Numbered from the stretch's first letter, positions 1 through 27,103 are shown. The stretch: DNA of 32,000 nucleotides from Wolbachia endosymbiont of Cimex lectularius (GCF_000829315.1 NZ_AP013028.1:420001-452000), one strand, 5' to 3'. Notes: a model not told the origin generated them from the sequence alone. Numbers and translations are program-made.

Positions 1-108
1 GTAAAAGAAGTGATAGATATGTTAATTCAACAGGCAAACAATTATATCGAAAACAAATCTGTAGAAGTGGAAAACTCAATCATTAGCAAAGCAAATATCA
101 ACCAATAA
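1..108 (+). CDS. 3' end of an unidentified CDS (partial, runs off window start)
   Basis: Frame 1 is open from base 1 to TAA at 106-108 (...IENKSVEVENSIISKANINQ*). No family recognised. Confidence 0.3.
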   Translation, partial: VKEVIDMLIQQANNYIENKSVEVENSIISKANINQ

Positions 109-212
109 GCAAATCGCCGTAATCGTCCATAATAGGGCATAATCGCCCAGTTTTAATGTAAAATTAACACTGATGAGGTATCTATACATTTTGTTATGTA
201 TGGAGGAATGCT

Positions 213-1412
213 ATGCCTGCTTTACTTGGTAAAAAAAATGTTTTACCCGCTAAAATACAAGAGCTTATTCAATCTTTGAATAATAAAGAAGATTGTGATC
301 TGTGCGGAGCTATATACAACAAGGCAACGAGAAAAAATCATAAAGGTAAAACTCTCACAAAGTACAGAGAGTTATTCGAGCAAGGGACTAGTCCTGAGGT
401 GTTAACTAAATTAGAAAAATCGCTGAGAGAACAAATTGAATTAGAAGAATCACCAGAAGAAAAAAAGGAACATCAAAGACATTACAAGTATTATATCAAA
501 ACCTTTCTTCCACCATTGCTACAAGAAATAACACAATCAAAAGAATTAGAACCAGAAAAAATAGAGCAAGTATTAAGAATAACTTCAGGCATTGTTAAGC
601 AGAGTAGCGAAGAAGAATGCAGGAGCCTCCTTTTAGAGTTGCAAAAAGAAATAATAAAGTCAAAAAGGTCGACAACGTCAAAAGAGCTAATGGCAAAAAA
701 AACGGAAATAGAAGCAACAGTTATGAGACTAATAGCTTCAGATGCTATTAGCAAGATCGTTGGTGAAAATCATCCTAATAACATTATTCAAAATCAAGGC
801 CCTGAAAATTTAGAAATAAATGATGAAGAAGAGTTAGAGAAACCTATAGAAACTCTTGAGCTCAGTGGTGATCCAGGTAGTAGAGCAAGTTCACCCGTAC
901 CGAGTGAGAAAAGCCCACCATCACCAGTAAGTAGGAGTGTAAGCCCAACATTAAACCATGCTAAAAAAGACGCTGGTCCACAAAAAAAAGAAACTAAGCA
1001 ACCAAAGCAGCCTGCAAAAGAAGAGCCAAAGAAGCAAGAAAATAAAATTTCAGGTGACCAAGCAGATCCAATCAGTAATGGTAATCCACAAAAAGAGGAT
1101 GAGAATCAAATGCAACCACCAAAGCAGAATCCAGAAGAAAAGCCAAAGAAGCAAGAAAATGAAAACTCAGAGCCTACAAAGCAACCCAATAACAGAAATT
1201 TTCGCATTGCACTTGCAACAGGTTGCGCTCTCTCTGCAATAGGATGTCTTATTGCCGGAGTGGTGACTTTGGGGATGGTAGGGGCAGGATTGTTGGTTAT
1301 GTCTGTAGTGCTTGCTATAGCAGCAGCAGTCACACGGTATTTAACCCCTCCTTCAAGTGAATTAACATCCACCAATTTGAGTCCTCTTATTGATGATGGT
1401 AAACAGCGGTAA
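213..1412 (+). CDS. hypothetical membrane-anchored protein (charged N-half, P/K/Q/E-rich repeats, C-terminal double-TM hairpin)
   Basis: 399-aa ORF with GGAGG a few nt upstream of the ATG. The region aa ~250-325 is P/K/Q/E-rich, with EEPKKQENK and EEKPKKQENE repeated. A ~43-residue uninterrupted hydrophobic stretch (IALATGCALSAIGCLIAGVVTLGMVGAGLLVMSVVLAIAAAVT) is split by a Gly-rich turn. No family recognised. Confidence 0.6.
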   Translation: MPALLGKKNVLPAKIQELIQSLNNKEDCDLCGAIYNKATRKNHKGKTLTKYRELFEQGTSPEVLTKLEKSLREQIELEESPEEKKEHQRHYKYYIKTFLPPLLQEITQSKELEPEKIEQVLRITSGIVKQSSEEECRSLLLELQKEIIKSKRSTTSKELMAKKTEIEATVMRLIASDAISKIVGENHPNNIIQNQGPENLEINDEEELEKPIETLELSGDPGSRASSPVPSEKSPPSPVSRSVSPTLNHAKKDAGPQKKETKQPKQPAKEEPKKQENKISGDQADPISNGNPQKEDENQMQPPKQNPEEKPKKQENENSEPTKQPNNRNFRIALATGCALSAIGCLIAGVVTLGMVGAGLLVMSVVLAIAAAVTRYLTPPSSELTSTNLSPLIDDGKQR

Positions 1413-1456
1413 AAATTAAATATATGTTACTCGTAGTGAACAAACAAATTCAGTTC

Positions 1457-1485
1457 TTGCCTGTTGATGTGAAAGTTGTTATAAT
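1457..1485 (+). promoter_or_regulatory. sigma70-like promoter candidate TTGCCT-N17-TATAAT
   Basis: TTGCCT at 1457-1462, a 17-nt spacer, then TATAAT at 1480-1485, about 25 nt upstream of the 1511/1514 start. It sits in the only sizeable gap before the 1511-7219 gene string. Confidence 0.45.
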
Positions 1486-1510
1486 CAGGTGGTGTTTAAA
1501 AGGTATTTAG

Positions 1511-1876
1511 TTGATGCGCATTCAATTGAATAGAGTTTTAGTTTTTATAGCCCTATTAAGCTTCATTTTTACATCATACTCAGGCGAGGCGATTCCAGTG
1601 GATAATGAACTAAAGGATATACAAGAAACGGTAAAAAATTTTATTTCTTCATTTTCAGTTAAGGATACCTTAGAAAATATGAGTCCTTCGACAATCATAG
1701 GATTATGTATAGCTGCAGTGATACTTGCAATATTGTTTAGGGGCCTGATCTTTTTCATGATAATGTTTGGTGTACTGGTCATGATGTTTGGTAGCACGGA
1801 AAGGGCAACTGACTACTTGAAAGAGAAGTTTAGTTTTGTAAAAGTAAAACCTGACAACGAAAAAGATAAAAATTAA
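1511..1876 (+). CDS. small exported double-TM protein, VirB2 (T-pilin)-like candidate
   Basis: 121 aa (TTG 1511, ATG 1514). It has an N-terminal signal-like segment (RVLVFIALLSFIFTSYSGEA), a ~35-aa polar spacer, then two adjacent hydrophobic helices (TIIGLCIAAVILAILFRGLIFFMIMFGVLVMMFG). The gene ends 35 nt upstream of a VirB4 homolog. This architecture fits TrbC/VirB2 pilins and does not fit VirB3. The call rests on topology only; I recognised no motif-level match. Confidence 0.45.
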   Translation: MMRIQLNRVLVFIALLSFIFTSYSGEAIPVDNELKDIQETVKNFISSFSVKDTLENMSPSTIIGLCIAAVILAILFRGLIFFMIMFGVLVMMFGSTERATDYLKEKFSFVKVKPDNEKDKN

Positions 1877-1911
1877 GTATCACTGCCTTTATTGAACGCA
1901 CATGATGTTGT

Positions 1912-4266
1912 ATGCAGCCAAAAATACCAGCAATTAACACTAAGCTTGAAAAAAAGAATAATCTAGCATTATTAGAAAGCATTGATTTAGACTTTATCCC
2001 TTACGCTTGTCATTATGATGAGGAAACCATACTAACAAAACAGGGAGAATTATTAAAAATAATCAAGTTAGAAGATTATTCCTCTGCTGATAATTACAGC
2101 GACCTTAGAACTGAAATTAGAAAAAGCATATCAAAAAATATCGATAGCTTATATTTCACTGTTTGGATTCATACTGCCCGAAAGCGCAATAAACTGAGCT
2201 TAAAATGGAACAAAACTGGAGACTTTTCTGATAAACTACATTCAACGTGGCTTAATAAACTCACTGATAGTAAACTGCAGTATATAAACGAGTTATACAT
2301 CGTAGTATTATTTAGCGATTTTGGCGAGCATACTAATAATTCATTTTTTCTGAGTAGAATAAAAAATCAGCATAAACTGTCTCTACAAGAAAACCATCGG
2401 GAATTACAAAGGGTAACTAATTTAATTCAAAGTGATTTGGAGCCTTTCGGAGCTAAAAAGCTGGGCCTAAGGTTTAGTGAGTGTAAAATGTATTCTGAAA
2501 TGATGGAATTTCTCCATTATATTGTTACGTTAACACGCAAAGACTACCCAATATGTGAAAGGGATCTGTCGCAACATGTTGAAAACTTAAAGGTAGCTTT
2601 TGGTTTTAACACATTTCAAACAACATTTGAAAATCAACAGAAATTTGGTTCTATTTTTTGTATAAAGGAATATCGGGAAATCCCTTTAGAAAATATAGAT
2701 AGGTGTTTACAACTTGACTCTGAGTTTATTATTACAGAAATAATAATATTCACTAGTAATAACAAAGCAGTCAAAGAATTCAAAAAACAAATCAATATGC
2801 TGCAAGTCAGTGAGGACAGTATCTTACTTCAAAACCCAGAAATCAAAGAAATAATAGAACTGGAAAAAACTTCTGCTATAGACTTTTGTCAACAGAAAAT
2901 TATTTTCACAATTTTTGCTGACGATAGAAAGAGACTAGCTGAAAACATCAGCGATTTGTCCGCAGTAATGTCGTTAGTTGGTTTGATGATGTTTAGAGCT
3001 GATCTACATATGAAAGATCATTTTTGGGCACAACTTCCAGGCAATTTTACTTTTGTTACACAACCGAAAAATATATTAAAAAAATATGCCTGCAGCTTTG
3101 CTATGCTACATGATTTTAGGTCAGGTACATTAAAAGGAGGAAGGTGGAAGGAAGCAGTAACGGTCTTTTTCTCAAAAAAAGGGTGCCCTTACTTTTTTAA
3201 TTTTCATGGAAAGAAAAACAATGGTCATACTACGATACTTGGCGCTCCGAATTCAGGCAGAACTTCACTAATTAATTTCCTGTTGTCAGAGTCAAGAAAA
3301 TTTGATCCTAGAATTGTCATATTAGACAACACCGGAAAGTCAATAATTTTTACTAAAGCGGTGAGCGGTAAATATTACATAATTGATCCAAAATATAAAA
3401 ATAAAAGCTTGAAATTTAATCCACTAAACATTGAAGGTAGTGCTTCCAATCGCAATATGCTAGTTGAACTGATCAAAAGAATGGTGGCTGATACAAACTC
3501 GGTGGATGTGGAGGAGAAGATAAAAAAAATTGTAGATTCTATATTTGCTATACCAAGGGAGTCGCGTTCTATTTCACAAATTTCTGAAGTGCTCTTACTC
3601 CTTGGGGGCAAGATAAGTAAATGGTGCAATGATGGTGAGTTTGCTTATTTATTTCAAGATGGTGATGAATCAGACATTGATTGGGAAATGAGAACTATAT
3701 CTCTCAATACTGCAAACCTTACGAAACGAAAGGAATGTATGTCCGTGATACTTTACTATTTCTTATACTCTTTTGAAGCAAAATGTGATGGCTCGCCTGC
3801 AATACTTGTTTTGGATGAAGCATGGGAGATAAGTAATATTTTTCCTACGGAGAAAGAGTTTGATAACTGGATGCACAGGATGACAAAATTAAATGTTGTG
3901 GTAATTCTAAGTACTGAAAACTTGAACCTGGCATTTGCTAGCAAATTTACTCAATATCTAGATAAACACGTTGATACAAGGATTTTGATGCCGAACGTCA
4001 ATGCAAATAGGTTATACATGAAAGCATTTTCTCTATCGAAAGAGGAACTAAACATAATCCTGCAAACACCAACGCAAGAAGGTTTGTTTTTGATAAAACA
4101 ATACAAAGGACTAGTAACTTTAAATTTAGATTTGAAAGATATGCAAGAAATACACATACTTTCAGCTAATAAAGATACTATAAAGTATATGTACGAAGCA
4201 ATAAAAGAAAAAGGGGAAGAAGTTAGTAAGTGGTTACCGGTGTTTTATGAAAAGTGTAAGGCTTAA
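1912..4266 (+). CDS. virB4: VirB4/CagE/TrbE-family type IV secretion ATPase, divergent paralog (rvhB4-II-like) with degenerate Walker A
   Basis: 784 aa. The N-terminal layout is VirB4-like (FIPYACHYDEETILTKQGELLKIIKLEDY). The P-loop position reads GHTTILGAPNSGRTSLINFLL (3241-3267), with Arg where the canonical Lys of GKT/S sits. Walker B/DEAW is intact (ILVLDEAWE, ~3802-3828). The later ST-E-N replaces the usual TQS-type motif. Confidence 0.85.
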   Translation: MQPKIPAINTKLEKKNNLALLESIDLDFIPYACHYDEETILTKQGELLKIIKLEDYSSADNYSDLRTEIRKSISKNIDSLYFTVWIHTARKRNKLSLKWNKTGDFSDKLHSTWLNKLTDSKLQYINELYIVVLFSDFGEHTNNSFFLSRIKNQHKLSLQENHRELQRVTNLIQSDLEPFGAKKLGLRFSECKMYSEMMEFLHYIVTLTRKDYPICERDLSQHVENLKVAFGFNTFQTTFENQQKFGSIFCIKEYREIPLENIDRCLQLDSEFIITEIIIFTSNNKAVKEFKKQINMLQVSEDSILLQNPEIKEIIELEKTSAIDFCQQKIIFTIFADDRKRLAENISDLSAVMSLVGLMMFRADLHMKDHFWAQLPGNFTFVTQPKNILKKYACSFAMLHDFRSGTLKGGRWKEAVTVFFSKKGCPYFFNFHGKKNNGHTTILGAPNSGRTSLINFLLSESRKFDPRIVILDNTGKSIIFTKAVSGKYYIIDPKYKNKSLKFNPLNIEGSASNRNMLVELIKRMVADTNSVDVEEKIKKIVDSIFAIPRESRSISQISEVLLLLGGKISKWCNDGEFAYLFQDGDESDIDWEMRTISLNTANLTKRKECMSVILYYFLYSFEAKCDGSPAILVLDEAWEISNIFPTEKEFDNWMHRMTKLNVVVILSTENLNLAFASKFTQYLDKHVDTRILMPNVNANRLYMKAFSLSKEELNIILQTPTQEGLFLIKQYKGLVTLNLDLKDMQEIHILSANKDTIKYMYEAIKEKGEEVSKWLPVFYEKCKA

Positions 4267-7219
4267 CTTTTTATTTATATTCCTCTTGACATTTGGTCTT
4301 TCGTATCAGGGATATGCTGAGTGTCCATCTCTCGTATGGAGTAATACTCATACCGAGGCAAATTTAAGTAAGACAGGTAAAGGTATTAAGAACTTTTTTC
4401 GTGGCAAGTGGGATGACTTGGATTTCGACGAAAAATTATTGCAGTATATTAAAGTCAAAGCAGTGAAAGATCAAGGAATTGGTGGTTACTTTAACCCGAA
4501 AATTAGAGTATGTGATTATGAAGGAGATAATTGTCATGAATTGTACAGTAGAACGTCTTGTCAAAAAATATATGGAACACAAGGGAGTGGAGCTGGAGTT
4601 TCAGCAGCAGTTTTTATAGACTGGGAAGGAGATAAAACAAGAGCTGGAGGAGAAATTGTTCAGGGTCTTGAATGGGAATGGGCAGAAGGTGTCACTGATG
4701 AAGAAAAAGTAAAATTTGCTAATTCTCCTAAGATATGCGCTTGTAGCCAAAAGAGCGCTTGCCTGAGTGGTGCTTCTGCAACTTTTGCTAGGTGGGGTCA
4801 AGGAGCGAATATTTTCCGCCCTGGAGAAATGGCAAAAGTTTGTGATACTTGTTTGTGGAGTCAAGGGAAACAAAAAATAAAATGTGCCCCTGTACCACTT
4901 GCACCTGGCCCACCTCCGTTCTGTGAACAACTTGCGATGTCACCTCCACAGGTTAGAATTGTTCCTATAACAAATGAAAAAAATGATTACTTTGATCTTA
5001 GGGTTAAGGTAATAATTGGTGACCTAATAGGAAAAGACGGAGAAATCGGAGAAAAGTTAGATTTTCCAAGAGAGTACAAAAAGGATAAGGCTGGGGAGAG
5101 CCCTACTCCGGGTGAAGTTAGGGAGCATTCTATTTTAGATAGAGATGGTACTACACACTACTTTGAAACGTACAGAAAAAAAAATAAACTCTGCACTGAA
5201 TACCGCGGTACCGAAAAGGAGGAATCTAAAAGAAGATTGCAATTTCCTGCTCGTTGTTTTCCGGTGCCACCTGCTCCAGAGCCTGAAGTAGTGGAGATAG
5301 TAAATGAAAATACGTTAAAAATAAAAGTAGAGATGAGCAGAAAAAGTTGCATGAAACAAGTAAATAGAAGTTATAGTGATGGCTATTGTACTTTCGAGAT
5401 CAGTTTTAATGCTAGTGAAGATAGGAAAAAAATTGACCCACGGTCTTTTAGAGTGATAAAACCAAGAATAATTAAAAAAACAACTAAGAATAGTAATGAT
5501 GAAAGTAACATCACTGATGTTATAGAAGGTATATTAAGAAAGAATCCTCAGTTTGCAATTTTGGAAAAATATGGGCTTACTCCTAATATTGGGATCCAGT
5601 TTCCTAATGGTGAGGATTACAGTATAACAAATCCTGACAAATCCAGTAAAAAAGGACCAACTAATTTGGAATTAGATGATATGGGACTACCAAAAATAGA
5701 AGTAAGGTACATGAGAGTAAAGGATCAAGCAAACTCTAAAAGAAAAATGCTTTGTCTTTCTGGTTGGAAGCCAGAACCAGAAGAGTTTGTACTTAAAAGA
5801 GGTGAGGAGGGAGAAAGTAAGATAATATCATTAAAATCAATGGGGGCAAGGTACGTTAAGTACAATACTGTTTATTCAAAGGAGTCGAATCAACTTTATT
5901 ATTTCCCTTGCAACGAAACAACTAATGTTTTGGCAAAGCCACAGGGCGAGCTAGATAAAATAATATTCAATAAGCGGGGATATATTTCCATTCCTGAAGA
6001 AAATATGAATAGAAGCAATTGCATTGCGGAAAAGGATGACGAAATGGATACAAAACAGAATTGCAACAAATGCAAGATAGTGTATAAATTAATAGATGGA
6101 AAGCGTAAGGAAAAATGTGAACAAGGTCAAGATGGCTGTCTCTGCTCAGGTAAAGCATGTAGCCGCTCAACACAATACTTGAACAAAAAAGGCGAGCCAT
6201 TTTATTTAAGGTACGAGGAAGTGGATTGTAAAGATAAGGATGGTAAAACACTAAAAAACGAAAAAGGTGAAATACAAAAGTGCACACAATTGAAAGATCA
6301 ACTGGTTAAAGCAAACAGACCAGAGGTTTTTTATGCTGATAAATTGTGTAGGCTTGACTTGGCAGGTTTAAAAGCGAAATTGAAAGAAATAATCAAGAAG
6401 CAGTTAGAAAAGAAGAAACAAGATATTGAAGAGAAGGATCGGAAAACTTATGATCTTGGAGATGGCTATACAGATGACTTGTCGCAATATGATTATGTTG
6501 AAATAGAGGCATGGGGAGGTGGTGAAGCAGGTCATATAAAAAACACTGCTCACTCTACAGAAAGTAGACCAGGAATGCCAGGAGATTATATTAAAGCTAA
6601 ACTAAAAATTGATCCTAATCACCCTGTGATTAAAGTTAAAGTTACGGAAGGAGGAGGTGGACAAGAAGATAGTCTATCAAACAAGGATGGAGGGCCAACT
6701 TGGATAGAAATGTGTAATTCGTACAGGCAAGATTGCCAGCCATTAATTACTGTTGCTGGTGGGGGTAAATACAGAACCTATGGGGGAAGGGATTACACAG
6801 ATACAATAATTCATGAACAAAATTTAAAGCTAGAAGAGGAAATTACGAAAGGAGATAAGCTAAGTTCTACTGAAGATAATAAAATAGCATATATAGATGA
6901 TGGTGAGATCAAGTATAAAAACGTAACAGAATGCAATAAAAGCTATGCTAATAAGACACATGGTGCTGGTGGTTGTGTTAATAAAGATAATGGAAGTTAT
7001 AGTAAAGGCTCTCCTGGTTATGCGAAGATTAAATCTATGTTTGACAAGATTGATGAAAGTAAAATAAATGTTGCTGTTGATGAGATGGTAGACAATCTAA
7101 AAGATATTACAATTGATGATTCTTTAATAAATAAACTTGATCACGATATAATTGATACAATTAAAGAAGAAATTAGAAAAGAATTGTTAGGGTCAGAGCC
7201 AAAAGGTTCTAAATCGTAG
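4247..7219 (+). CDS. secreted Cys-rich 990-aa protein with C-terminal Gly-rich (GGG-motif) domain, function unknown
   Basis: The ATG at 4247 overlaps the virB4 stop (4264-4266) by 20 nt. The signal peptide reads MKSVRLNFLFIFLLTFGLSYQGYA|EC, and there are many Cys residues. The motif C-x-P-V-P-x-A-P-x-P occurs twice (~4883-4918 and ~5246-5288). The C-terminal ~180 aa carry spaced Gly clusters: AWGGGEAG, PGMPGDY, VTEGGGGQ, TVAGGGKY, HGAGGC, GSPGY. Confidence 0.7.
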   Translation: MKSVRLNFLFIFLLTFGLSYQGYAECPSLVWSNTHTEANLSKTGKGIKNFFRGKWDDLDFDEKLLQYIKVKAVKDQGIGGYFNPKIRVCDYEGDNCHELYSRTSCQKIYGTQGSGAGVSAAVFIDWEGDKTRAGGEIVQGLEWEWAEGVTDEEKVKFANSPKICACSQKSACLSGASATFARWGQGANIFRPGEMAKVCDTCLWSQGKQKIKCAPVPLAPGPPPFCEQLAMSPPQVRIVPITNEKNDYFDLRVKVIIGDLIGKDGEIGEKLDFPREYKKDKAGESPTPGEVREHSILDRDGTTHYFETYRKKNKLCTEYRGTEKEESKRRLQFPARCFPVPPAPEPEVVEIVNENTLKIKVEMSRKSCMKQVNRSYSDGYCTFEISFNASEDRKKIDPRSFRVIKPRIIKKTTKNSNDESNITDVIEGILRKNPQFAILEKYGLTPNIGIQFPNGEDYSITNPDKSSKKGPTNLELDDMGLPKIEVRYMRVKDQANSKRKMLCLSGWKPEPEEFVLKRGEEGESKIISLKSMGARYVKYNTVYSKESNQLYYFPCNETTNVLAKPQGELDKIIFNKRGYISIPEENMNRSNCIAEKDDEMDTKQNCNKCKIVYKLIDGKRKEKCEQGQDGCLCSGKACSRSTQYLNKKGEPFYLRYEEVDCKDKDGKTLKNEKGEIQKCTQLKDQLVKANRPEVFYADKLCRLDLAGLKAKLKEIIKKQLEKKKQDIEEKDRKTYDLGDGYTDDLSQYDYVEIEAWGGGEAGHIKNTAHSTESRPGMPGDYIKAKLKIDPNHPVIKVKVTEGGGGQEDSLSNKDGGPTWIEMCNSYRQDCQPLITVAGGGKYRTYGGRDYTDTIIHEQNLKLEEEITKGDKLSSTEDNKIAYIDDGEIKYKNVTECNKSYANKTHGAGGCVNKDNGSYSKGSPGYAKIKSMFDKIDESKINVAVDEMVDNLKDITIDDSLINKLDHDIIDTIKEEIRKELLGSEPKGSKS

Positions 7220-7353
7220 CTTAAAGTGTCTTAACATCATGAATTTTGCCTCTTACTTTAATAATTAATTAAAGTAAATCACGTATTAATTTGCTATTCA
7301 GTTTAATTGCTATATTTTAACAAAAAGGTACAGCTAATGTAAGGGGGTGCTTT

Positions 7354-7965
7354 ATGTCTCTGAGTAATAAGATTTCTGGGCTAATAGAACAACAATTTAA
7401 CATTAAAAACCATGATAACTATTTGGCTTACGCTATACACAAGTGGGCTGCAAGTGAAATGTCCGATTCCATTGCTCTTTGTATAACTGGCAGTGGCGAA
7501 TGCAAGATCAAGTATCAAGACATTGCAAATTCATTCAACATAACAAAAGAGGAAATTGACCAGGGTAATATTGAAAGTATAGGAAATAAAATAAGAAGTG
7601 AAGCTGAAAAGGAAGATAGCAAGTTTTCTGAGTTGATTTCTAGAATGGATCAATCGCTAAAAGAGCAGAGTGAAAAGTCTATTATACAAATTTTAAATTC
7701 ATCTGCTGAGGAGATGTTGAGGAGTTTTTGTGGGCAATGCAATAGCTCTGCGGAGGAAAACAGTTCCCCTAGTCTCAAGAAATCAATAATGCACCCTCTG
7801 CTTTACCTGAAGAGCCTACCACAGAAGGTTTGGAAACTACTACCAATCAAGATCCTTTTTCAACCTAATCAACCCCATATATATACTCTTTTTGCACCCA
7901 CGCTTTACGTTTTGAGGAGGATAGCAAGCACCATTTCTCATTGCATTTTTCTATTCTCATTATAA
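7354..7965 (+). CDS. hypothetical protein; 3' end uncertain (possible frameshift near 7773-7790)
   Basis: 203-aa ORF with AAGGGGG upstream of the ATG. The last ~60 codons are low-plausibility sequence that overlaps the convergent SH3 gene by 101 nt. An alternative frame opens at 7773 and ends at TAA 7866-7868 (…NNAPSALPEEPTTEGLETTTNQDPFST*). Confidence 0.45.
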   Translation: MSLSNKISGLIEQQFNIKNHDNYLAYAIHKWAASEMSDSIALCITGSGECKIKYQDIANSFNITKEEIDQGNIESIGNKIRSEAEKEDSKFSELISRMDQSLKEQSEKSIIQILNSSAEEMLRSFCGQCNSSAEENSSPSLKKSIMHPLLYLKSLPQKVWKLLPIKILFQPNQPHIYTLFAPTLYVLRRIASTISHCIFLFSL

Positions 7966-8353
7966 CGTATTCGTCTATTTTCATAGTAATCTTACTGTCC
8001 ATATTCTGTTTTTGATATCCATAAGTATCTTCTTTTATCATCGCGTAGCGCCTGTTATTGAGCAGATTACTTTTTATCCATCCGCAGTCTTCTTTTATAT
8101 CACAGACCTTTTTCCAGTTTTCAAACTCTTCTATCACTTTTAGGGGCAGGTTTTTGCAAGTGTATATCCATATTACAGGATAGTGAAACCCTGGTCCTGT
8201 TCTCATATTGACTTTATTTGATTTTATTGAAACAAAGTTGCTGGCAAACAAGTTAGGACTAAACAATAAAAACAATAGGATAATAGTAGATCTATTTCTG
8301 AACCAAGATCCTAGTGTCACGCACTGGGGTGACGTAAGTGGTTTATTCATCAT
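7865..8353 (-). CDS. exported SH3b-type (DUF1058/YgiM-like) domain protein
   Basis: 162 aa with a hydrophobic signal-like segment (STIILLFLLFSPNLFASNF). This is followed by a bacterial SH3-like pattern (VNMRTGPGFHYPVIWIYTCKNLPLKVIEEFENWKKVCDIKEDCGWIKSNLL) and a second half (YVIMRIEKCNEKWCLLSSSKRKAWVQKEYIYG). Confidence 0.7.
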   Translation of the reverse strand: MMNKPLTSPQCVTLGSWFRNRSTIILLFLLFSPNLFASNFVSIKSNKVNMRTGPGFHYPVIWIYTCKNLPLKVIEEFENWKKVCDIKEDCGWIKSNLLNNRRYAMIKEDTYGYQKQNMDSKITMKIDEYVIMRIEKCNEKWCLLSSSKRKAWVQKEYIYGVD

Positions 8354-8422
8354 AATTCACGATTAGATTGACATAAGATAAAGAGTAAATTAAAAATTGA
8401 ATAGATTTTTAATTTACAATAG

Positions 8423-9811
8423 ATGCCCATAGAAATATTAATGCCTGCTCTTTCCCCGACAATGAGCAAAACTGGGGGAAAAATCGTAAAGTGGTGTAAA
8501 AAAGAGCAAGATAGAGTTGAAGCAGGTGATGTAATTGCTGAAATAGAGACTGACAAAGCCATAATGGAGTTTGAGTCTGTGGATGAAGGGGTTTTAGCAA
8601 AAATTCTAGTATCGGAGGGAGCAAGTGGTGTGCCTGTAAATCAACCAATAGCTCTAATGCTGGAAGAAGGAGAAGATAATAGTGCACTTGATAACTATGT
8701 TCTAGCTTCTACTACCAATGTTGAAGCTAAGAAAGAAGTTGAAGCACACTCTTCAACGTCATCCAATTCTTCAGTGCCAGATGACTCTTCAATGTCATCT
8801 AACTTCTCAGCGTCATCCAACCCTTTAGTGTCACCTAACACTTCAATGCCATCCAACCCTTCAGTGTCATCCAACCCTTCAGTGTCATCCAACCCCTCAA
8901 TGTCATCCCAGTGCTTGACACTGGGATCCAGAAAAGAAGAAGATACCAAAACAACAGAAAGTAGAATAAAAATAAGCCCATTAGCTAAGAAAATAGCTCA
9001 AAATGAAAATGTGGATATAAAACGACTAAAAGGTACCGGGCCATATAGCCGTATCATTAAAGCTGACGTATTGGAGTTTTTAGACGGTGGTGTACAAATT
9101 GAAAATCGTGAAAGATCGAGCGAAGACGTTATAATCGAAGCAAGCAACATGCGCCAGGTGATAGCACAACGCCTGATTGAGTCTAAACAGAATATACCGC
9201 ACTTTGATTTAACTGTAGACTGCCGGGTTGATAAGCTAATATCGCTCAAAAACGAGATTAATTCAGCAGATGAAAACAATAAAGTAACAATTAATGATCT
9301 AATTATAAAAGCTGTGGCTTTCAACATGAAGAAATTTCCTGATGTAAATTCTTCCTGGATAGATGATAAAATACTGAAATATGCAAACATAGATATTTCA
9401 ATCGCTGTAGCACTTGAAGATGGACTAATCACCCCCATAGTAAAAAATGCTGATAAAAAAAGTATTTTATCTATATCAAAGGAAGTGAAGGATCTAGTAA
9501 GCAGAGCAAGGTCTGGAAAATTAAGACCTGAAGAATTTCAAGGAGGAGGGTTTACTGTCTCCAACTTAGGCATGTTTGGTATAAAAACTTTCAGCGCTAT
9601 AATTAACCCGCCGCAGTCCTGCATTATGGCTGTTGGTACATCCAAGAAACAGCCTATTGTTATCAATGAAAAAATAGAGATAGCAGAAATAATGATGGTA
9701 ACACTTTCTGTTGACCATAGAACAGTTGATGGAGCACTAGGGGCAAAATTTTTAAACGCCTTTAAGCATTATATAGAGAATCCTCTAGCGATGCTTCTTG
9801 AGTCTGCGTAG
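8423..9811 (+). CDS. pdhC: pyruvate dehydrogenase complex E2, dihydrolipoamide acetyltransferase
   Basis: The lipoyl domain is present (MPIEILMPALSPTMSKTGGKIVKW...IAEIETDKAIMEFES, lipoyl-Lys in TDKA). The E3-binding domain reads ISPLAKKIAQNENVDIKRLKGTGPYSRIIKADV. The catalytic domain carries the DHRTVDGA active-site motif. 462 aa. Confidence 0.92.
   Translation: MPIEILMPALSPTMSKTGGKIVKWCKKEQDRVEAGDVIAEIETDKAIMEFESVDEGVLAKILVSEGASGVPVNQPIALMLEEGEDNSALDNYVLASTTNVEAKKEVEAHSSTSSNSSVPDDSSMSSNFSASSNPLVSPNTSMPSNPSVSSNPSVSSNPSMSSQCLTLGSRKEEDTKTTESRIKISPLAKKIAQNENVDIKRLKGTGPYSRIIKADVLEFLDGGVQIENRERSSEDVIIEASNMRQVIAQRLIESKQNIPHFDLTVDCRVDKLISLKNEINSADENNKVTINDLIIKAVAFNMKKFPDVNSSWIDDKILKYANIDISIAVALEDGLITPIVKNADKKSILSISKEVKDLVSRARSGKLRPEEFQGGGFTVSNLGMFGIKTFSAIINPPQSCIMAVGTSKKQPIVINEKIEIAEIMMVTLSVDHRTVDGALGAKFLNAFKHYIENPLAMLLESA
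8752..8930. repeat. Degenerate 18-24-bp tandem repeats ending in a palindrome, embedded in frame in the pdhC linker
   Basis: Units of the form tca(g/a)tgtcatccaaccc repeat here, giving SNPSVSSNPSVSSNPSMSS in the E2 frame. They end with the hairpin atcccagtg-cttga-cactgggat (8905-8927). The same unit-plus-palindrome architecture occurs intergenically at 11134-11310 and 19268-19348. Confidence 0.8.
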
Positions 9812-10247: not shown

Positions 10248-10891
10248 GAGGATGTTACCAAAGGGTTTTCCAAGATGGGAAAGCGTATATTACTATTTTC
10301 GAGTGTGGAGTAAAAAGAATGGAGAAGAGCCAAGCTTGTTGGAATTAGTCTTAAAAAAAATTAGTTGGAGAGGTCCGTATCAGCAATGGTCGGAAAGAGA
10401 AAACTAGCTTTTGTATAATTGATTCTCAAAGCGTTAAAAACGCAGATACTGCTGAAAAAAAAGGCTATGATGCAGGTAAAAAGATTTCAGGGATAAAGCG
10501 CCATATTGCAGTTGATACACAAGGTTTGCCACATGCAATTTATGTAACAACGGCAGAAGCAACTGACCGTAGCAGTGCTGTGAAAATGGTCGAAAATGCT
10601 AAAGCAAACCTCTCTGAAGTTAAAAACATACTGGTTGATGCTGGCTACACAGGAGAAAATTTTGCAACACAAATAAAAGCTATCATTGGTGCGACTGTTG
10701 AAGTAATAAAGCGAAGTGAGTTACACACTTTCGTCGTATTGCCAAAAAGATGGGTTGTTGAACGCTCTTTTGCCTGGTTAGAAAAGTGCAGGCGATTGTG
10801 GAAAAATTGCGAGCGGAAGCTCAACACTAGCTTACAGATGATAGTCCTCTCCTTCATTTCTCTCCTGTTACGAAGATTTTAAACAGGTTCT
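10248..10891 (+). mobile_element. 5'-truncated copy (~644 bp) of the IS5-family element
   Basis: From 10248 the sequence matches the full copies from about position 253 of the IS onward, through the terminal repeat ...cgaagattttaaacaggttct at 10891. It lacks the left end and most of orfA. Its second poly-A tract is A8 (10455-10462), which leaves the DDE frame open from 10355 to 10882. Confidence 0.85.
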
Positions 10892-19945: not shown

Positions 19946-20808
19946 AGAACCTGTTTAAAATCTTCGTAACAGGAGAGAAATGAAGGAGAGGACTATCATC
20001 TGTAAGCTAGTGTTGAGCTTCCGCTCGCAATTTTTCCACAATCGCCTGCACTTTTCTAACCAGGCAAAAGAGCGTTCAACAACCCATCTTTTTGGCAATA
20101 CGACGAAAGTGTGTAACTCACTTCGCTTTATTACTTCAACAGTCGCACCAATGATAGCTTTTATTTGTGTTGCAAAATTTTCTCCTGTGTAGCCAGCATC
20201 AACCAGTATGTTTTTAACTTCAGAGAGGTTTGCTTTAGCATTTTCGACCATTTTCACAGCACTGCTACGGTCAGTTGCTTCTGCCGTTGTTACATAAATT
20301 GCATGTGGCAAACCTTGTGTATCAACTGCAATATGGCGCTTTATCCCTGAAATCTTTTTACCTGCATCATAGCCTTTTTTTTTCAGCAGTATCTGCGTTT
20401 TTAACGCTTTGAGAATCAATTATACAAAAGCTAGTTTTCTCTTTCCGACCATTGCTGATACGGACCTCTCCAACTAATTTTTTTTAAGACTAATTCCAAC
20501 AAGCTTGGCTCTTCTCCATTCTTTTTACTCCACACTCGAAAATAGTAATATACGCTTTCCCATCTTGGAAAACCCTTTGGTAACATCCTCCACTGACAAC
20601 CACTTTTTAAGACGTACAACACCCCACAAAATACGTCATACAAATCAAGTTTTCTTGGTTTTGTTTTCTGCTTGCTACTCTCCAAATTTGGCCTGATTTT
20701 TTCAAACTGCTCTTGACTTATATTACTTGGATAACTTTTCTGCATAGACACCTCATTATTAATCTATGCTTACTTTACCTCACATTTCCAAGATTTTAAA
20801 CAGGTTCT
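19946..20808 (-). mobile_element. IS5-family insertion sequence, copy A (863 bp)
   Basis: The terminal inverted repeats are agaacctgtttaaaatcttcg (19946) and ccaagattttaaacaggttct (to 20808). It carries orfA and a DDE part. At the protein level it is identical to copy B (variant RPNLESS / KKNGEE). Flanking triplets are TTA on the left and TAA on the right, so they do not match. Confidence 0.92.
19955..20751 (-). CDS. IS5-family transposase (orfA 20431-20751 plus frameshifted DDE part 19955-20419)
   Basis: orfA has the DUF4096-like pattern (YDVFCGVLYVLKSGCQWRMLPKGFPRWESVYYYFRVW). The DDE part contains IIDSQSVK (out of frame), LVDAGYTG and VVERSFAWLEKCRRLWKNCE. The frames are split at poly-A tracts A8 and A9. 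Confidence 0.85.
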
Positions 20809-20954: not shown

Positions 20955-22995
20955 TTAATATCTAATGTAGTATTCTTTTTCAGAGTCAGTGATATTAGGA
21001 ATGTTGAACATAGTTGTCCCCTTGGTGTTAATTATATTGACAATTGCGTCTGCGAGATCTTCGGTCTTCATTCCATCCGTATTGATTTTTACATATTCCT
21101 TGGCAGCAATATCTCTATATGGTGTGTCATCGTCACCTAATGTGTTCCACCATATTACTAGGTCGCAAACATAGCCGGGATCAGTGTTGTCGTACCTTTT
21201 AAAACCTATCCAATCGATAGGTTCCCAACTACCTTTTTTGTTAAGTTTAATTGCGTACAAACATCTTTGAGTAAACAGAGCCTTATGCTGCATAGCGTAC
21301 GTTATCACTGAATTTTTATCGGTAAATAGTACGTTAGGTTTTCCTGGTATTCTCTTATCTGTTGGTGATTGTTTATAAATAACGTGATTGCCCCATGATT
21401 TTATTAATGGGTAACGTCTATCAATTTCCTTATCGTAACTCATAATTACAGTAGCGTAAGCTGTAGAAGCGGAAGCACTTTCAAGATCTGTACCATACAC
21501 TGAGTACATCGAACACACAAACCACGGGGAAAATAAAAAGTAGTTTTGTGAGCAGTTACAATTAGTAGTAGTTGGCTGCAAAAAAGTAGCACTAGCCTTT
21601 GGTATAATTAAAGGAAAACCAATATCATAAACTCTACTAGTAAAATTAACTGGATTAAAAAACCCGCATAAACCAGAAGGATATGGAAATTGTTGATAAT
21701 TAAGACTTACCGTTAAATAAAAAAATCCATCTTTAACAGAATAGCTTATTTCAGTTTTCTTAGTTACTTCATCAATACCTTTATTATTATGATTTAACTT
21801 AGTTGTAGTTCGAAAATAACCTGAAAAATCAGAGTCAGAATCCGCAAATTTCACCGAAAACAATCCATTACTAGTCATTCTAATTTTTTCACTTAAATAG
21901 TTAGTGGTAATATCAAACGAATGACAACAGGTGATGATTTCCATATTGTCACTGCTGTTTGATACAACGTATTGAAAATTGTAATCCACAGATGGATTAG
22001 CATGAAATGTAGTTTCTATCCACAGGTCAGCAATACCATCACCTTCAGGTTTTGAACTTACTACCCCCTTCCCATCAAAAGCAACTTTGACTTTATTATC
22101 TGCAACGAACTTTTTTATGTATTTACTTGATATTGCATTAAACCAATTTGGTGTATCTTTAGTTTTGAGCATATCAAACGTAACTGGTGTAAGACCTAGT
22201 TTTTCGTATAGCCTCCTGTATTCAATTCCTAGAGGACTCATTCCATTTGCATCAAGTGCACGACCATCGCACTTCATTAAATTTATCTCTTTCTCATTGA
22301 CTTTTGCCCCCTTAGGATAAGTGACTATTTCACCAACATTGTCTGCGAATTTCAGACCTTCAATTGTAAAAATTAATTCTTTATAACCATCATCAATTCC
22401 ATATTTAGTTGGCGAAAACGAAGAAAACAACAAATGAGATTTCGCTAAATCAGAGTTTTGTACTGGATATTTAAAATCAACAACCGATACAGGCGATGAA
22501 ACCTCCGCACAATAGAAATTTGTTGCTCTTAAGTCAAATTTTTGATTTTTCGGCAGAGAAAACTGCAGCAATAAATATTGATCATCGCCAATATCTTTTG
22601 GTATTGTTACTTTAGGTAAAGCAAAACGACTAAAATAAACCTTTGGATCGTCAGAATCAATTGTGTATTCAGCAACCTGTATAACTTGCGGCGCTGCCAA
22701 TGACTTTGAGCCAAAATTGCGAATAACTGACACAGCAAGTGGTATATTATCACCGCTTTTCCAAGCATAAAATTTTAGCTGAATGTTAGTATTCGCGCCC
22801 CACAGCACATTAGAACTCCTAAACGCTACAATTTTCTGCAACGGCGGCGCTTTCTCGCTGAACTTTTCGCAGATAACGTTCAAATAAAAACGAGGGTTGC
22901 CTTCACTGATTTTTTCAGCTTCGTTGATTTCTTTGATGAAAATTCTATCTACATCAACTCTGTTTTGTACCGGTACTGAGTCAGCATAAGGTCTT
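20955..22995 (-). pseudogene. C-terminal ~680 codons of a phage tail-fibre / receptor-binding-like gene split by IS copy B
   Basis: Track ORF 20955-22883 (642 aa) stays open upstream to the IS boundary (…LRPYADSVPVQNRVDVDRIFIKEINEAEKISEGNPRFYLNVICEKF…). It joins 23859-24257 in frame once the IS and one TTA are removed. The functional call rests only on size, context and a tail-fibre-like N-terminus. Confidence 0.6.
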
Positions 22996-23858
22996 AGAAC
23001 CTGTTTAAAATCTTGGAAATGTGAGGTAAAGTAAGCATAGATTAATAATGAGGTGTCTATGCAGAAAAGTTATCCAAGTAATATAAGTCAAGAGCAGTTT
23101 GAAAAAATCAGGCCAAATTTGGAGAGTAGCAAGCAGAAAACAAAACCAAGAAAACTTGATTTGTATGACGTATTTTGTGGGGTGTTGTACGTCTTAAAAA
23201 GTGGTTGTCAGTGGAGGATGTTACCAAAGGGTTTTCCAAGATGGGAAAGCGTATATTACTATTTTCGAGTGTGGAGTAAAAAGAATGGAGAAGAGCCAAG
23301 CTTGTTGGAATTAGTCTTAAAAAAAATTAGTTGGAGAGGTCCGTATCAGCAATGGTCGGAAAGAGAAAACTAGCTTTTGTATAATTGATTCTCAAAGCGT
23401 TAAAAACGCAGATACTGCTGAAAAAAAAAGGCTATGATGCAGGTAAAAAGATTTCAGGGATAAAGCGCCATATTGCAGTTGATACACAAGGTTTGCCACA
23501 TGCAATTTATGTAACAACGGCAGAAGCAACTGACCGTAGCAGTGCTGTGAAAATGGTCGAAAATGCTAAAGCAAACCTCTCTGAAGTTAAAAACATACTG
23601 GTTGATGCTGGCTACACAGGAGAAAATTTTGCAACACAAATAAAAGCTATCATTGGTGCGACTGTTGAAGTAATAAAGCGAAGTGAGTTACACACTTTCG
23701 TCGTATTGCCAAAAAGATGGGTTGTTGAACGCTCTTTTGCCTGGTTAGAAAAGTGCAGGCGATTGTGGAAAAATTGCGAGCGGAAGCTCAACACTAGCTT
23801 ACAGATGATAGTCCTCTCCTTCATTTCTCTCCTGTTACGAAGATTTTAAACAGGTTCT
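22996..23858 (+). mobile_element. IS5-family insertion sequence, copy B (863 bp) inserted in the tail-fibre-like gene
   Basis: It has the same termini as copy A. It is flanked by TTA (22994-22996) and TTA (23858-23860) if the core is taken as gaacctg...caggttc (861 bp). Confidence 0.92.
23053..23849 (+). CDS. IS5-family transposase (orfA 23053-23373 plus frameshifted DDE part 23385-23849)
   Basis: As for copy A. The A8 tract lies at 23319-23326 and the A9 tract at 23421-23429. Confidence 0.85.
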
Positions 23859-25248: not shown

Positions 25249-26000
25249 AGAACCTGTTTAAAATCTTGGAAATGTGAGGTAAAGTAAGCATAGATTAATA
25301 ATGAGGTGTCTATGCAGAAAAGTTATCCAAGTAATATAAGTCAAGAGCAGTTTGAAAAAATCAGGCCAATTTTGGAGAGTAGCAAGCAGAAAACAAAACC
25401 AAGAAAACTTGATTTGTATGACGTATTTTGTGGGGTGTTGTACGTCTTAAAAAGTGGTTGTCAGTGGAGGATGTTACCAAAGGGTTTTCCAAGATGGGAA
25501 AGCGTATATTACTATTTTCGAGTGTGGAGTAAAAAGAGTGGAGAAGAGCCAAGCTTGTTGGAATTAGTCTTAAAAAAAATTAGTTGGAGAGGTCCGTATC
25601 AGCAATGGTCGGAAAGAGAAAACTAGCTTTTGTATAATTGATTCTCAAAGCGTTAAAAACGCAGATACTGCTGAAAAAAAAAGGCTATGATGCAGGTAAA
25701 AAGATTTCAGGGATAAAGCGCCATATTGCAGTTGATACACAAGGTTTGCCACATGCAATTTATGTAACAACGGCAGAAGCAACTGACCGTAGCAGTGCTG
25801 TGAAAATGGTCGAAAATGCTAAAGCAAACCTCTCTGAAGTTAAAAACATACTGGTTGATGCTGGCTACACAGGAGAAAATTTTGCAACACAAATAAAAGC
25901 TATCATTGGTGCGACTGTTGAAGTAATAAAGCGAAGTGAGTTACACACTTTCGTCGTATTGCCAAAAAGATGGGTTGTTGAACGCTCTTTTGCCTGGTTA
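25249..26000 (+). mobile_element. IS5-family copy C, 3'-truncated (~110 bp missing), abutting copy D tail-to-tail
   Basis: The left end agaacctgtttaaaatcttgg starts at 25249. The copy matches the IS through ...ttgcctggtta, then copy D begins. The junction is ambiguous within 25998-26003. Variant RPILESS / KKSGEE is shared with copy D. Confidence 0.88.
25306..26000 (+). pseudogene. IS5-family transposase of copy C, truncated at the C-terminus
   Basis: orfA at 25306-25626 is intact. The DDE part (25638-) ends ...ERSFAWLE and then reads into copy D. Confidence 0.8.
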
Positions 26001-26862
26001 GAACCTGTTTAAAATCTTCGTAACAGGAGAGAAATGAAGGAGAGGACTATCATCTGTAAGCTAGTGTTGAGCTTCCGCTCGCAATTTTTCCACAATCGCC
26101 TGCACTTTTCTAACCAGGCAAAAGAGCGTTCAACAACCCATCTTTTTGGCAATACGACGAAAGTGTGTAACTCACTTCGCTTTATTACTTCAACAGTCGC
26201 ACCAATGATAGCTTTTATTTGTGTTGCAAAATTTTCTCCTGTGTAGCCAGCATCAACCAGTATGTTTTTAACTTCAGAGAGGTTTGCTTTAGCATTTTCG
26301 ACCATTTTCACAGCACTGCTACGGTCAGTTGCTTCTGCCGTTGTTACATAAATTGCATGTGGCAAACCTTGTGTATCAACTGCAATATGGCGCTTTATCC
26401 CTGAAATCTTTTTACCTGCATCATAGCCTTTTTTTTTCAGCAGTATCTGCGTTTTTAACGCTTTGAGAATCAATTATACAAAAGCTAGTTTTCTCTTTCC
26501 GACCATTGCTGATACGGACCTCTCCAACTAATTTTTTTTAAGACTAATTCCAACAAGCTTGGCTCTTCTCCACTCTTTTTACTCCACACTCGAAAATAGT
26601 AATATACGCTTTCCCATCTTGGAAAACCCTTTGGTAACATCCTCCACTGACAACCACTTTTTAAGACGTACAACACCCCACAAAATACGTCATACAAATC
26701 AAGTTTTCTTGGTTTTGTTTTCTGCTTGCTACTCTCCAAAATTGGCCTGATTTTTTCAAACTGCTCTTGACTTATATTACTTGGATAACTTTTCTGCATA
26801 GACACCTCATTATTAATCTATGCTTACTTTACCTCACATTTCCAAGATTTTAAACAGGTTCT
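26000..26862 (-). mobile_element. IS5-family insertion sequence, copy D (863 bp)
   Basis: Both terminal repeats are present. TTA sits on both sides of the 861-bp core (25998-26000 and 26862-26864). Confidence 0.9.
26009..26805 (-). CDS. IS5-family transposase (orfA 26485-26805 plus frameshifted DDE part 26009-26473)
   Basis: As for the other copies. The T9 tract (A9 on the coding strand) lies at ~26429-26437. Confidence 0.85.
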
Positions 26863-26863
26863 T

Positions 26864-27103
26864 AGAGAAGTTTTAGCAAGAATAGGTCTCAATGGGTTTA
26901 CCGATGGGCAAATTGCCAAATTATTTGCTCAATATTCTTTTGGTTCTTCTAAGGATCCAGTAACACGAGAATTACTAGCGGCTTTACAAGGAAGAATTGT
27001 TGAAGAGCAAAGTGGTTTTATCATGGAAATGCTAAAAAAAACAGCGATGAGTGGTGTTAGAGTAGGGCTGCGTGGACGAATGAAGATGAAAGAAGATGAT
27101 TAA
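26864..27103 (+). pseudogene. 3' part of a small phage gene cut by the IS pair (gpW-like or HTH small-terminase-like; unknown)
   Basis: The frame runs from the IS boundary: REVLARIGLNGFTDGQIAKLFAQYSFGSSKDPVTRELLAALQGRIVEEQSGFIMEMLKKTAMSGVRVGLRGRMKMKEDD*. Its stop (27101-27103) overlaps the portal ATG (27096). A possible 5' piece lies at 25228-25249. Confidence 0.45.

Follow-up and report, generated by a model that had tools for sequence, protein, structure and literature searches.

Why would a type IV secretion system (T4SS) ATPase paralog with a defective catalytic site be kept between a small membrane protein and a large exported protein? The question is raised by a stretch of 32,000 nucleotides (nt) from the genome of the Wolbachia endosymbiont of Cimex lectularius (GCF_000829315.1, NZ_AP013028.1:420001-452000), referred to below, at its full length, as the window. 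Three genes follow each other there on the plus strand. They encode a small membrane protein, a VirB4 paralog (RvhB4-II or VirB4-2, here VirB4-II) and a protein of 990 amino acids (aa) that is predicted to be exported. The window has a G+C content of about 35%, and the closest relatives of the genes in this region are those of Wolbachia. In this region lies the Wolbachia version of a three-gene cassette that is old and conserved, and the 990-aa protein, judging by its sequence, is homologous to the N-terminal ~770 aa of the Ehrlichia surface protein EtpE (EtpE-N). The evidence leans slightly towards a reading in which VirB4-II helps to mount the EtpE-N-like protein on the bacterial surface or on a pilus, in the position of VirB5. 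The features of the window are collected in Table 1.

Table 1. Features of the window, with positions counted from its first nucleotide. ORF, open reading frame; NJ, neighbour-joining; AF2, AlphaFold2; IS, insertion sequence.
Feature	Position	Strand	Basis
Candidate sigma-70 promoter: TTGCCT, 17-nt spacer, TG-extended TATAAT	1457..1485	+	Motif match and conservation
Small membrane protein, WBM0751 ortholog, 120 aa from ATG 1514 (121 aa from TTG 1511)	1514..1876	+	ORF, hydropathy
RvhB4-II / VirB4-2 paralog, 784 aa	1912..4266	+	Pfam, NCBIfam, 88% identity to wBm0750, NJ tree
Degenerate Walker A GAPNSGRTS (Arg for catalytic Lys), aa 444-452	3241..3267	+	Read from sequence
Retained Walker B LVLDEAWE, aa 632-639	3805..3828	+	Read from sequence
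Overlap of VirB4-II stop and EtpE-N-like gene start, 20 nt	4247..4266	+	Same overlap in wBm, a group B strain, wFol, wCfeT and Mesenet
EtpE-N-family protein, 990 aa, Cys-rich, predicted Sec-exported, WBM0749 ortholog	4247..7219	+	BLASTP, profile search, shared motifs
Predicted signal peptide MKSVRLNFLFIFLLTFGLSYQGYA	4247..4318	+	Read from sequence; conserved in family alignments
Family signature CxxxPLAPGPPPFC, N-terminal module	4883..4924	+	Near-invariant across 26 family members
Gly_rich_2 (PF21722) domain, (Y/C)D(Y/F)xxIEAWGGG to GAGGC...G.PG	6488..7039	+	Pfam, AF2, Foldseek
WBM0748-family "T4SS-associated protein", accessory neighbour outside the conserved trio	7354..7965	+	NCBIfam NF049850, 5.6e-78, 259.9 bits vs 150 cutoff, aa 1-144
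WBM0752-like protein, 399 aa, Pro/Lys/Glu-rich, low complexity, C-terminal hydrophobic/transmembrane segments	213..1412	+	29% identity to wBm protein
IS4/IS5-family copy	19955-20751	-	
IS4/IS5-family copy	23053-23849	+	
IS4/IS5-family copy	25306-26012	+	
IS4/IS5-family copy	26009-26805	-	
IS4/IS5-family fragment	10526-10882	+	

The relationship of the large protein to EtpE was detected at several levels. In the BLASTP comparison of the 990-aa protein with E. chaffeensis EtpE, two collinear matches with E values of 7e-11 and 1e-6 were obtained, and the matched E. chaffeensis protein scored 3611 bits on the NCBIfam EtpE model NF049896 (cutoff 1500 bits). A Mesenet protein bridged the two, with 2e-37 to the window protein and 8e-33 (113 bits) to the EtpE model. 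The profile built from 27 Wolbachia sequences resulted in only 67 matches at E<=1e-3 among 1.84 billion representative proteins, which indicates a narrow family rather than generic glycine-rich similarity. These 67 include Anaplasma proteins as well as the E. muris and E. canis clusters that carry the name EtpE; the EtpE clusters were reached at 2.6e-8 and 4.8e-6. The distant full-length members, 680–1900 aa long, share a signal peptide, the motif C..P.AP.PPPFC at about aa 150–220, the CDFxxxEAWGGG entry to the Gly-rich domain and the GxGGC...TCExW ending. The 990-aa protein itself matched no NCBIfam family, the EtpE equivalog NF049896 included, so that it can be named only via these distant relatives. 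No alignment was obtained past aa 769 of EtpE; the Wolbachia protein stops about 60 aa after the Gly-rich domain and lacks EtpE-C (aa 1658–1965).

In comparison with E. chaffeensis EtpE (ECH1038, NF049896), the signal peptide, the PPPFC module and the Gly_rich_2 domain were found in the same order, and the genes occupy the same genomic slot after virB4-2. The Wolbachia protein corresponds to the published EtpE-N fragment, aa 29–708 of EtpE. In contrast, it is half as long, has neither the variable central region nor the DNase X-binding EtpE-C, and its gene overlaps virB4-II, whereas the Ehrlichia gene lies about 700 nt away. EtpE of E. chaffeensis is experimentally surface-exposed, with an N-terminal part poorly accessible to antibody on live bacteria (PMC3789761). 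According to Mohan Kumar et al., EtpE-N is conserved among Ehrlichia and is not itself an invasin; surface exposure and invasin activity have been shown for E. chaffeensis EtpE only (PMC3789761). Ehrlichia carries a second EtpE-N-like gene just 3' of etpE (L002:20451-22376, P0331 cluster, E. chaffeensis) with 132 bits on the EtpE model, which in some annotations is a "conserved domain protein" of 750 aa.

Within Wolbachia the 990-aa protein is universal and is annotated as hypothetical. The original prediction had described a giant secreted protein, rich in Cys and Gly, next to VirB4-II. The signal peptide and the gene overlap were found as described and 31 Cys and 82 Gly were counted, whereas the relation to EtpE had been missing from that description. 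Wolbachia and Mesenet both conserve the overlapping ATG at 4247 together with the encoded signal peptide. The public annotation of a near-identical contig (L005:6035, equal to window position 4286) starts the large gene at a downstream TTG, by which the signal peptide is lost and the 20-nt overlap is hidden. Twenty of the 31 Cys are invariant within Wolbachia; an oxidised periplasmic or extracellular location would fit such a protein. No beta-barrel or autotransporter domain was detected in it by Pfam. Foster et al. had earlier placed the ortholog Wbm0749 among the likely surface proteins; it is expressed in Brugia tissues and has been detected in worm proteomes.

The Gly_rich_2 domain, the only Pfam match of the 990-aa protein, scored 27.4 bits against the Pfam cutoff of 24.3 bits (aa 748–847), and the homologs scored 31–43 bits. 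The AF2 confidence (predicted local distance difference test, pLDDT) was 70–92 over this domain. The best Foldseek match of the model in the PDB, the fibre of cyanophage Pam3 (PDB 7ypx), was borderline with an E value of 1.2e-3. The link to fibre-head or glycine-rich domains of phages and giant viruses was clearer from BFVD than from the PDB, with 24 proteins at E<=1e-3. Nothing was found in the PDB by the sequence-profile search with the 990-aa family. The C-terminal domain thus resembles the glycine-rich fibre heads of phages and giant viruses by Pfam score and by predicted structure; here, in contrast, it occurs in a protein that is encoded on a bacterial chromosome and linked to a T4SS paralog, and it belongs to a narrow sequence family.

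The 784-aa protein was assigned as the RvhB4-II ortholog from profile matches, sequence identity and tree position. As the original prediction of a VirB4 homolog implied, it matched Pfam CagE_TrbE_VirB (PF03135) with 2.5e-29, and the TIGR00929 alignment covers aa 27–781, i.e. the full-length VirB4 architecture. Its scores were below the curated VirB4 cutoffs (441 vs 643 bits for TIGR00929 and 420 vs 1050 bits for PRK13898). The identity was 88% to wBm0750, which was named virB4-2 by Li and Carlow, 52% to the Mesenet protein and 42% to E. chaffeensis virB4-2. In the NJ tree, which contained no named RvhB4-I sequences and therefore separates the two types only indirectly, the Wolbachia, Mesenet and Ehrlichia virB4-2 proteins formed a clade in 99 of 100 bootstraps. 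No other T4SS genes were found in the 32-kb window, so that VirB4-II has an orphan location apart from virB3/virB6 and virB8-D4. These results agree with the divergent second VirB4 of Rickettsiales that the original prediction had proposed. The RvhB4-II paralog is conserved across Rickettsiales families, and its defective ATPase site and unknown role have already been published (PMC4676284).

The Arg in place of the catalytic Lys in Walker A and the intact DEAW of Walker B were both confirmed; the protein thus departs from the catalytic pattern GxxGxGK[ST] and retains the hhhhDE of Walker B. Nearly every Wolbachia homolog, and Mesenet too, carries this Arg as a fixed residue, and the Ehrlichia equivalent reads GSPQSSVT. 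The window protein shares with RvhB4-II / VirB4-2 of wBm (wBm0750) and E. chaffeensis the full-length architecture, the orphan location, the defective Walker A and the retained Walker B; the Lys-to-Arg form is specific to Wolbachia and Mesenet, and nothing essential differs. The ORF is intact, and the identity among the full-length Wolbachia homologs listed was 61–100% (at least 69% except for strain P0204). In P0204, the Wolbachia endosymbiont of Pentidionis, the Lys is present (GVPNSGKT) and Walker B is broken (LHEAS), the reverse of all other strains. Deep relatives of the cassette keep an intact GKT P-loop, which suggests that the ancestral VirB4-II was probably an active ATPase. The grouping of all VirB4 proteins linked to Gly-rich proteins into a single clade was rejected (0 of 100 bootstraps), with the VirB4 of locus L006 placed among the GKT-bearing sequences.

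At every examined locus with an EtpE-N-like gene, this gene lay directly 3' of a VirB4-II-type gene (L001, L002, L004, L006-L014, L016-L019). The genome scan was performed with a single narrow peptide pattern, E[AS]WGGGA[SA][GS], and returned only 8 loci; that none of them came from Anaplasma, Neorickettsia or Rickettsia does not show absence from these genera. The expectation that a homolog of the 990-aa gene follows virB4-II in related genomes was upheld in Mesenet, in Ehrlichia and in five further loci from metagenome-assembled genomes (MAGs) or metagenomes. The junction was a 20-nt overlap in five Wolbachia strains (the window, L004, L016, L017, L018) and in two Mesenet (L001, L009), a 4-nt overlap in an Anaplasmataceae MAG (L008), an 8-nt overlap in assembly GCA_964580525.1 (L006), a 17-nt overlap in a metagenome contig (L007) and an 8-nt gap in a Rickettsiales MAG (L011). 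Outside Ehrlichia every junction was an overlap of 4–20 nt or an 8-nt gap; in five Ehrlichia (L002, L010, L012-L014) the genes are separated by a spacer of 670–820 nt.

TrbC/VirB2 genes were found upstream of VirB4-II in Ehrlichia, in L007, L008, L011 and L019, and on the P0220 contig. That virB2 paralogs are linked to virB4-2 in Anaplasma, Ehrlichia and Neorickettsia had already been published, and the original prediction had pointed to such placement in Anaplasmataceae. The two deeper, GKT-bearing relatives (L019 and the P0220 contig) have a TrbC gene, a VirB4 gene and an overlapping gene for a large protein, with no other T4SS genes nearby. The P0220 contig, whose large downstream protein is a possible family member, was left out of the linkage count. 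Since these deep relatives with GKT share the layout, the cassette is older than the loss of the catalytic Lys. The large protein of L019 keeps the N-terminal module of the family and has a different C-terminus, which points to the N-terminal module as the constant part and to the distal part as exchangeable.

The arrangement within the window matched the original prediction closely. A gap of 35 nt (1877–1911) separates the small gene from the 784-aa VirB4 ORF (1912–4266), the stop codon of which (4264–4266) lies 3' of the ATG of the 990-aa gene at 4247, and the latter ORF ends at 7219. The trio and its 20-nt overlap are retained in 5 Wolbachia strains whose flanking genes differ. The near-consensus candidate promoter in front of the small gene was also located as predicted, with the -35 hexamer TTGCCT at 1457–1462, the -10 hexamer TATAAT at 1480–1485 and a TG immediately 5' that makes the -10 extended. 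It ranked first among the promoter-like sites in positions 1–8500 (10 of 12 matches). The class as a whole was not enriched, with 26 sites observed vs 29.2 ± 5.8 in shuffles, so that the hexamers alone are weak evidence. The pattern TTG[CT]CT-N17-TA[TC]A[AT]T was kept with equal spacing in 5 Wolbachia strains of different lineages, and a block of about 110 nt upstream of the cassette was conserved also in L017 and L018, in which a transposase or integrase gene precedes it. The conservation of hexamers, spacing and block despite the swapped upstream genes suggests that the promoter region travels with the cassette. Rfam and tRNA scans of the window gave no matches. The "virB4-2 promoter" probe that was shifted by wBmxR2 in the electrophoretic mobility shift assay of Li and Carlow (2012) corresponds to L004:7673-8021 in wBm, equivalent to about 1590–1935 of the window. 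This probe lies almost wholly within the WBM0751 coding sequence (7593–7970) and the 30-nt spacer, and misses the intergenic region upstream of the small gene, the site of the conserved promoter motif.

For the first gene of the trio, the shorter product of 120 aa is the more likely one because the orthologs start at ATG. The signal peptide and the pair of transmembrane helices predicted for the 121-aa form were consistent with hydrophobic stretches at aa 3–24 and 56–96. The search for homologs yielded 50, every one a hypothetical protein of Wolbachia, and the family shows strong conservation through the hydrophobic segment. The protein occupies the VirB2 slot upstream of VirB4-II and resembles the TrbC/VirB2 pilins whose genes are linked to virB4-2 in Anaplasma, Ehrlichia and Neorickettsia in position, in length (120 vs 119–124 aa) and in layout, i.e. 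a signal peptide followed by two adjacent hydrophobic helices split by a basic residue. The corresponding stretches of Ehrlichia VirB2 are aa 1–24 and 53–97. In contrast to those pilins, it has no TrbC match, no significant profile-profile match and none of the conserved Cys motifs.

The original prediction had called this protein pilin-like, a description that holds for position and hydropathy layout only. None of 27 family members matched TrbC (PF04956) in the Pfam scan at E<=10. In hhalign comparisons of the family with 5, then 14 cassette-linked VirB2 proteins the probability was 0.6–0.9%, and the sole greedy alignment with VirB2 was collinear. The PDB profile search gave no pilin, and tblastn of VirB2 proteins against the window gave no support for a VirB2 gene. 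The AF2 model was weak (pLDDT 64) with one continuous helix over aa 58–92, and Foldseek found no match for it in the PDB. The ICNV Cys motif, the G(K/R)xxW loop and the C-terminal Cys of the cassette-linked VirB2 proteins are absent from the small protein, and in Mesenet there is no gene in its slot. VirB2 membership was rejected on the TrbC, PDB profile, hhalign, AF2/Foldseek and tblastn results and kept as a positional analogy. The protein is regarded here as a small membrane protein specific to Wolbachia; descent from VirB2, with divergence past the point of recognition, seems unlikely. Wolbachia has been reported with three to six canonical virB2 genes elsewhere in the genome.

How the three products might work together can be outlined as follows. 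One transcript starting at about 1492 would cover all three genes, and translation of the large protein would be coupled to that of VirB4-II via the overlap. The large protein would then be exported by Sec, its disulfides would form, and it would be handed via VirB4-II to the envelope-spanning rvh T4SS or to a pilus. The Wolbachia VirB4-II may act as a non-hydrolysing, possibly nucleotide-binding docking subunit, and the small protein as a Wolbachia-specific membrane partner or a diverged VirB2 derivative. The EtpE-N-like protein would sit at the surface or on the pilus in the role of the canonical VirB5, with the constant N-terminal module as a machine-proximal anchor and the C-terminal part providing a lineage-specific host contact.

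The comparison with VirB5 is drawn from gene order. Canonically the genes are ordered virB2-B3-B4-B5, and virB5, which follows virB4, encodes a Sec-exported tip adhesin. Rickettsiales have no VirB5, and the formation of the wMel pilus without VirB5 has been flagged as unresolved. The location of the EtpE-N-like gene after virB4 and the lack of VirB5 in Rickettsiales together suggest the analogy. The 990-aa protein shares with the minor pilin-adhesin VirB5/TrbJ the position after virB4, the Sec-dependent export and a proposed surface or tip site, a likeness that is positional and hypothetical; it is about 4 times larger, beta-rich and Cys-rich, and no sequence or fold similarity links the two. 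It is conceivable, but rather doubtful, that EtpE-N proteins are the missing VirB5-equivalent of the rvh T4SS, i.e. Sec-exported adhesins or tip subunits loaded by RvhB4-II, whose C-terminal modules set the host contact. If this were so, a function for RvhB4-II, a route of EtpE to the Ehrlichia surface and a candidate host-contact protein on the Wolbachia pilus would be obtained at once.

Several results weigh against mounting by VirB4-II. No similarity to VirB5 was found by Pfam, NCBIfam, Foldseek against the PDB or the PDB profile search, and the AF2 model of the 990-aa protein is poor outside aa 240–390 and 710–935. As the spacer in Ehrlichia indicates, the cassette can do without tight coupling. 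The scan, made with one narrow pattern, under-samples the taxonomic spread. Moreover, one Rickettsiaceae MAG has an orphan VirB4 with neither partner of the cassette, and universality across Rickettsiales was rejected on this ground. Finally, the authors of the EtpE study predicted that this protein is self-anchored in the outer membrane (PMC3789761). In the main rival, a Sec-exported surface or outer-membrane protein that is anchored independently, through its N-terminus as predicted for EtpE, would share the operon merely for stage-matched expression, and its display would be independent of the T4SS. The distance between the Ehrlichia genes and the dissimilarity of the 990-aa protein to known T4SS subunits are in line with such co-regulation. 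However, the adjacency spans Wolbachia to deep MAG lineages, in which the VirB4 proteins are just 30–35% identical, and has survived repeated rearrangement of the flanks; overlap of start and stop is the rule, and the absence of a Pfam beta-barrel or autotransporter domain does not favour self-anchoring. Co-regulation alone is consequently regarded as possible, yet not likely.

The original prediction went further and proposed an accessory T4SS module that is self-contained and stands apart from the canonical operons, in which the 121-aa pilin forms a filament, VirB4-II is the scaffold and the 990-aa protein the cargo. The length, hydropathy layout and exact slot of the 121-aa protein, equal to those of Ehrlichia VirB2, and the collinearity of its only local hhalign match speak for this model. 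Its failure in the TrbC, hhalign and fold comparisons, the lack of the VirB2 Cys motifs and of the G(K/R)xxW loop, its absence from Mesenet and the several canonical virB2 genes reported in Wolbachia speak against it. The cassette has no VirB6-B10 channel parts and therefore cannot be self-contained. The model is regarded as very unlikely. It is highly improbable that the 990-aa protein is a T4SS-translocated effector in the host cytoplasm: it is encoded beside a T4SS gene, and Brugia material was found to contain WBM0749, but the predicted cleavable Sec-type signal peptide and the 31 Cys point to a disulfide-bonded periplasmic or extracellular protein, and the homolog EtpE acts from the bacterial surface. 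A term search of the wBm effector-screen paper located WBM0749 only in Table 1, the candidate list. The view that VirB4-II is a functionless, decaying relic with an accidental overlap could appeal to the lost Lys and to the score below the NCBIfam VirB4 cutoff. It is scarcely credible, since the ORF is intact, the identity is high among the Wolbachia homologs listed (61–100%) and reaches 52% with Mesenet, the Arg is fixed rather than drifting and the paralog is conserved across Rickettsiales families. Mounting of the EtpE-N-like protein by VirB4-II accordingly remained the reading that was preferred, if only slightly.

RvhB4-II, its dead P-loop, the virB2/virB4-2 linkage and Ehrlichia EtpE are already known; the relation to EtpE-N and its linkage to virB4-II appear to be new. 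Of the elements in the original prediction, the degenerate P-loop and the virB2/virB4-2 linkage had thus been described earlier. It has been suggested before that the virB2 paralogs and virB4-2 might build a variable surface organelle. In the literature searched, no link of EtpE to Wolbachia or to virB4-2 and no description of EtpE outside Ehrlichia were found; an earlier account of the downstream gene may exist. The wBm genes 0748, 0749, 0751 and 0752 were earlier screened as effector candidates because they flank a T4SS gene.

The literature terms the role of the Rvh-II components, which are duplicated and catalytically dead, "unknown" (PMC4676284) and "a mystery". Among Ehrlichia invasins EtpE is the one characterised best, and it is also a vaccine candidate; long T4SS pili were seen in wMel by cryo-electron tomography. 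The conserved VirB2 / VirB4-II / EtpE-N cassette, in which translation is probably often coupled, joins three questions, namely the role of Rvh-II, the display of EtpE and the wMel pili without VirB5, which can be addressed with Ehrlichia transposon mutants already available and by imaging of wMel. The results also nominate Wbm0749 as a conserved, expressed candidate surface protein of filarial Wolbachia.

The genes next to the cassette were more variable. The WBM0748-family gene is Wolbachia-specific, present in wBm and not beside the cassette in L016-L018. Its ORF encodes 203 aa here vs 142–144 aa in the wBm protein and the NCBIfam model, and the 59 additional aa at the C-terminus reach into the 3' end of a convergent gene with an SH3_4 domain (7865–8353, minus strand); the longer ORF may result from a lost stop codon or a frameshift. 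In L017 and L018 a transposase or an integrase takes the place of the WBM0752-like upstream neighbour. The 29% identity of this neighbour to the wBm protein, compared with 55–88% for the adjacent genes, indicates that it evolves fast; WBM0752 is expressed in wBm.

The rest of the 32-kb window contains housekeeping genes, IS5-family copies and a phage portal fragment. The two-ORF IS4/IS5-family element (DUF4096 and DDE_Tnp_1) is present in four copies and one fragment, and one pair of copies flanks a 642-aa ORF (20955–22883, minus strand) that has no Pfam match. A 136-aa fragment at 27096–27506, whose neighbouring ORFs have no Pfam match, matches the N-terminus of a P22-like phage portal protein and is probably a degraded prophage remnant. 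In the E2 acyltransferase (8423–9811) an expanded Ser/Pro-rich linker with SSNPS(V/M)S repeats was observed between the lipoyl and E3-binding domains.

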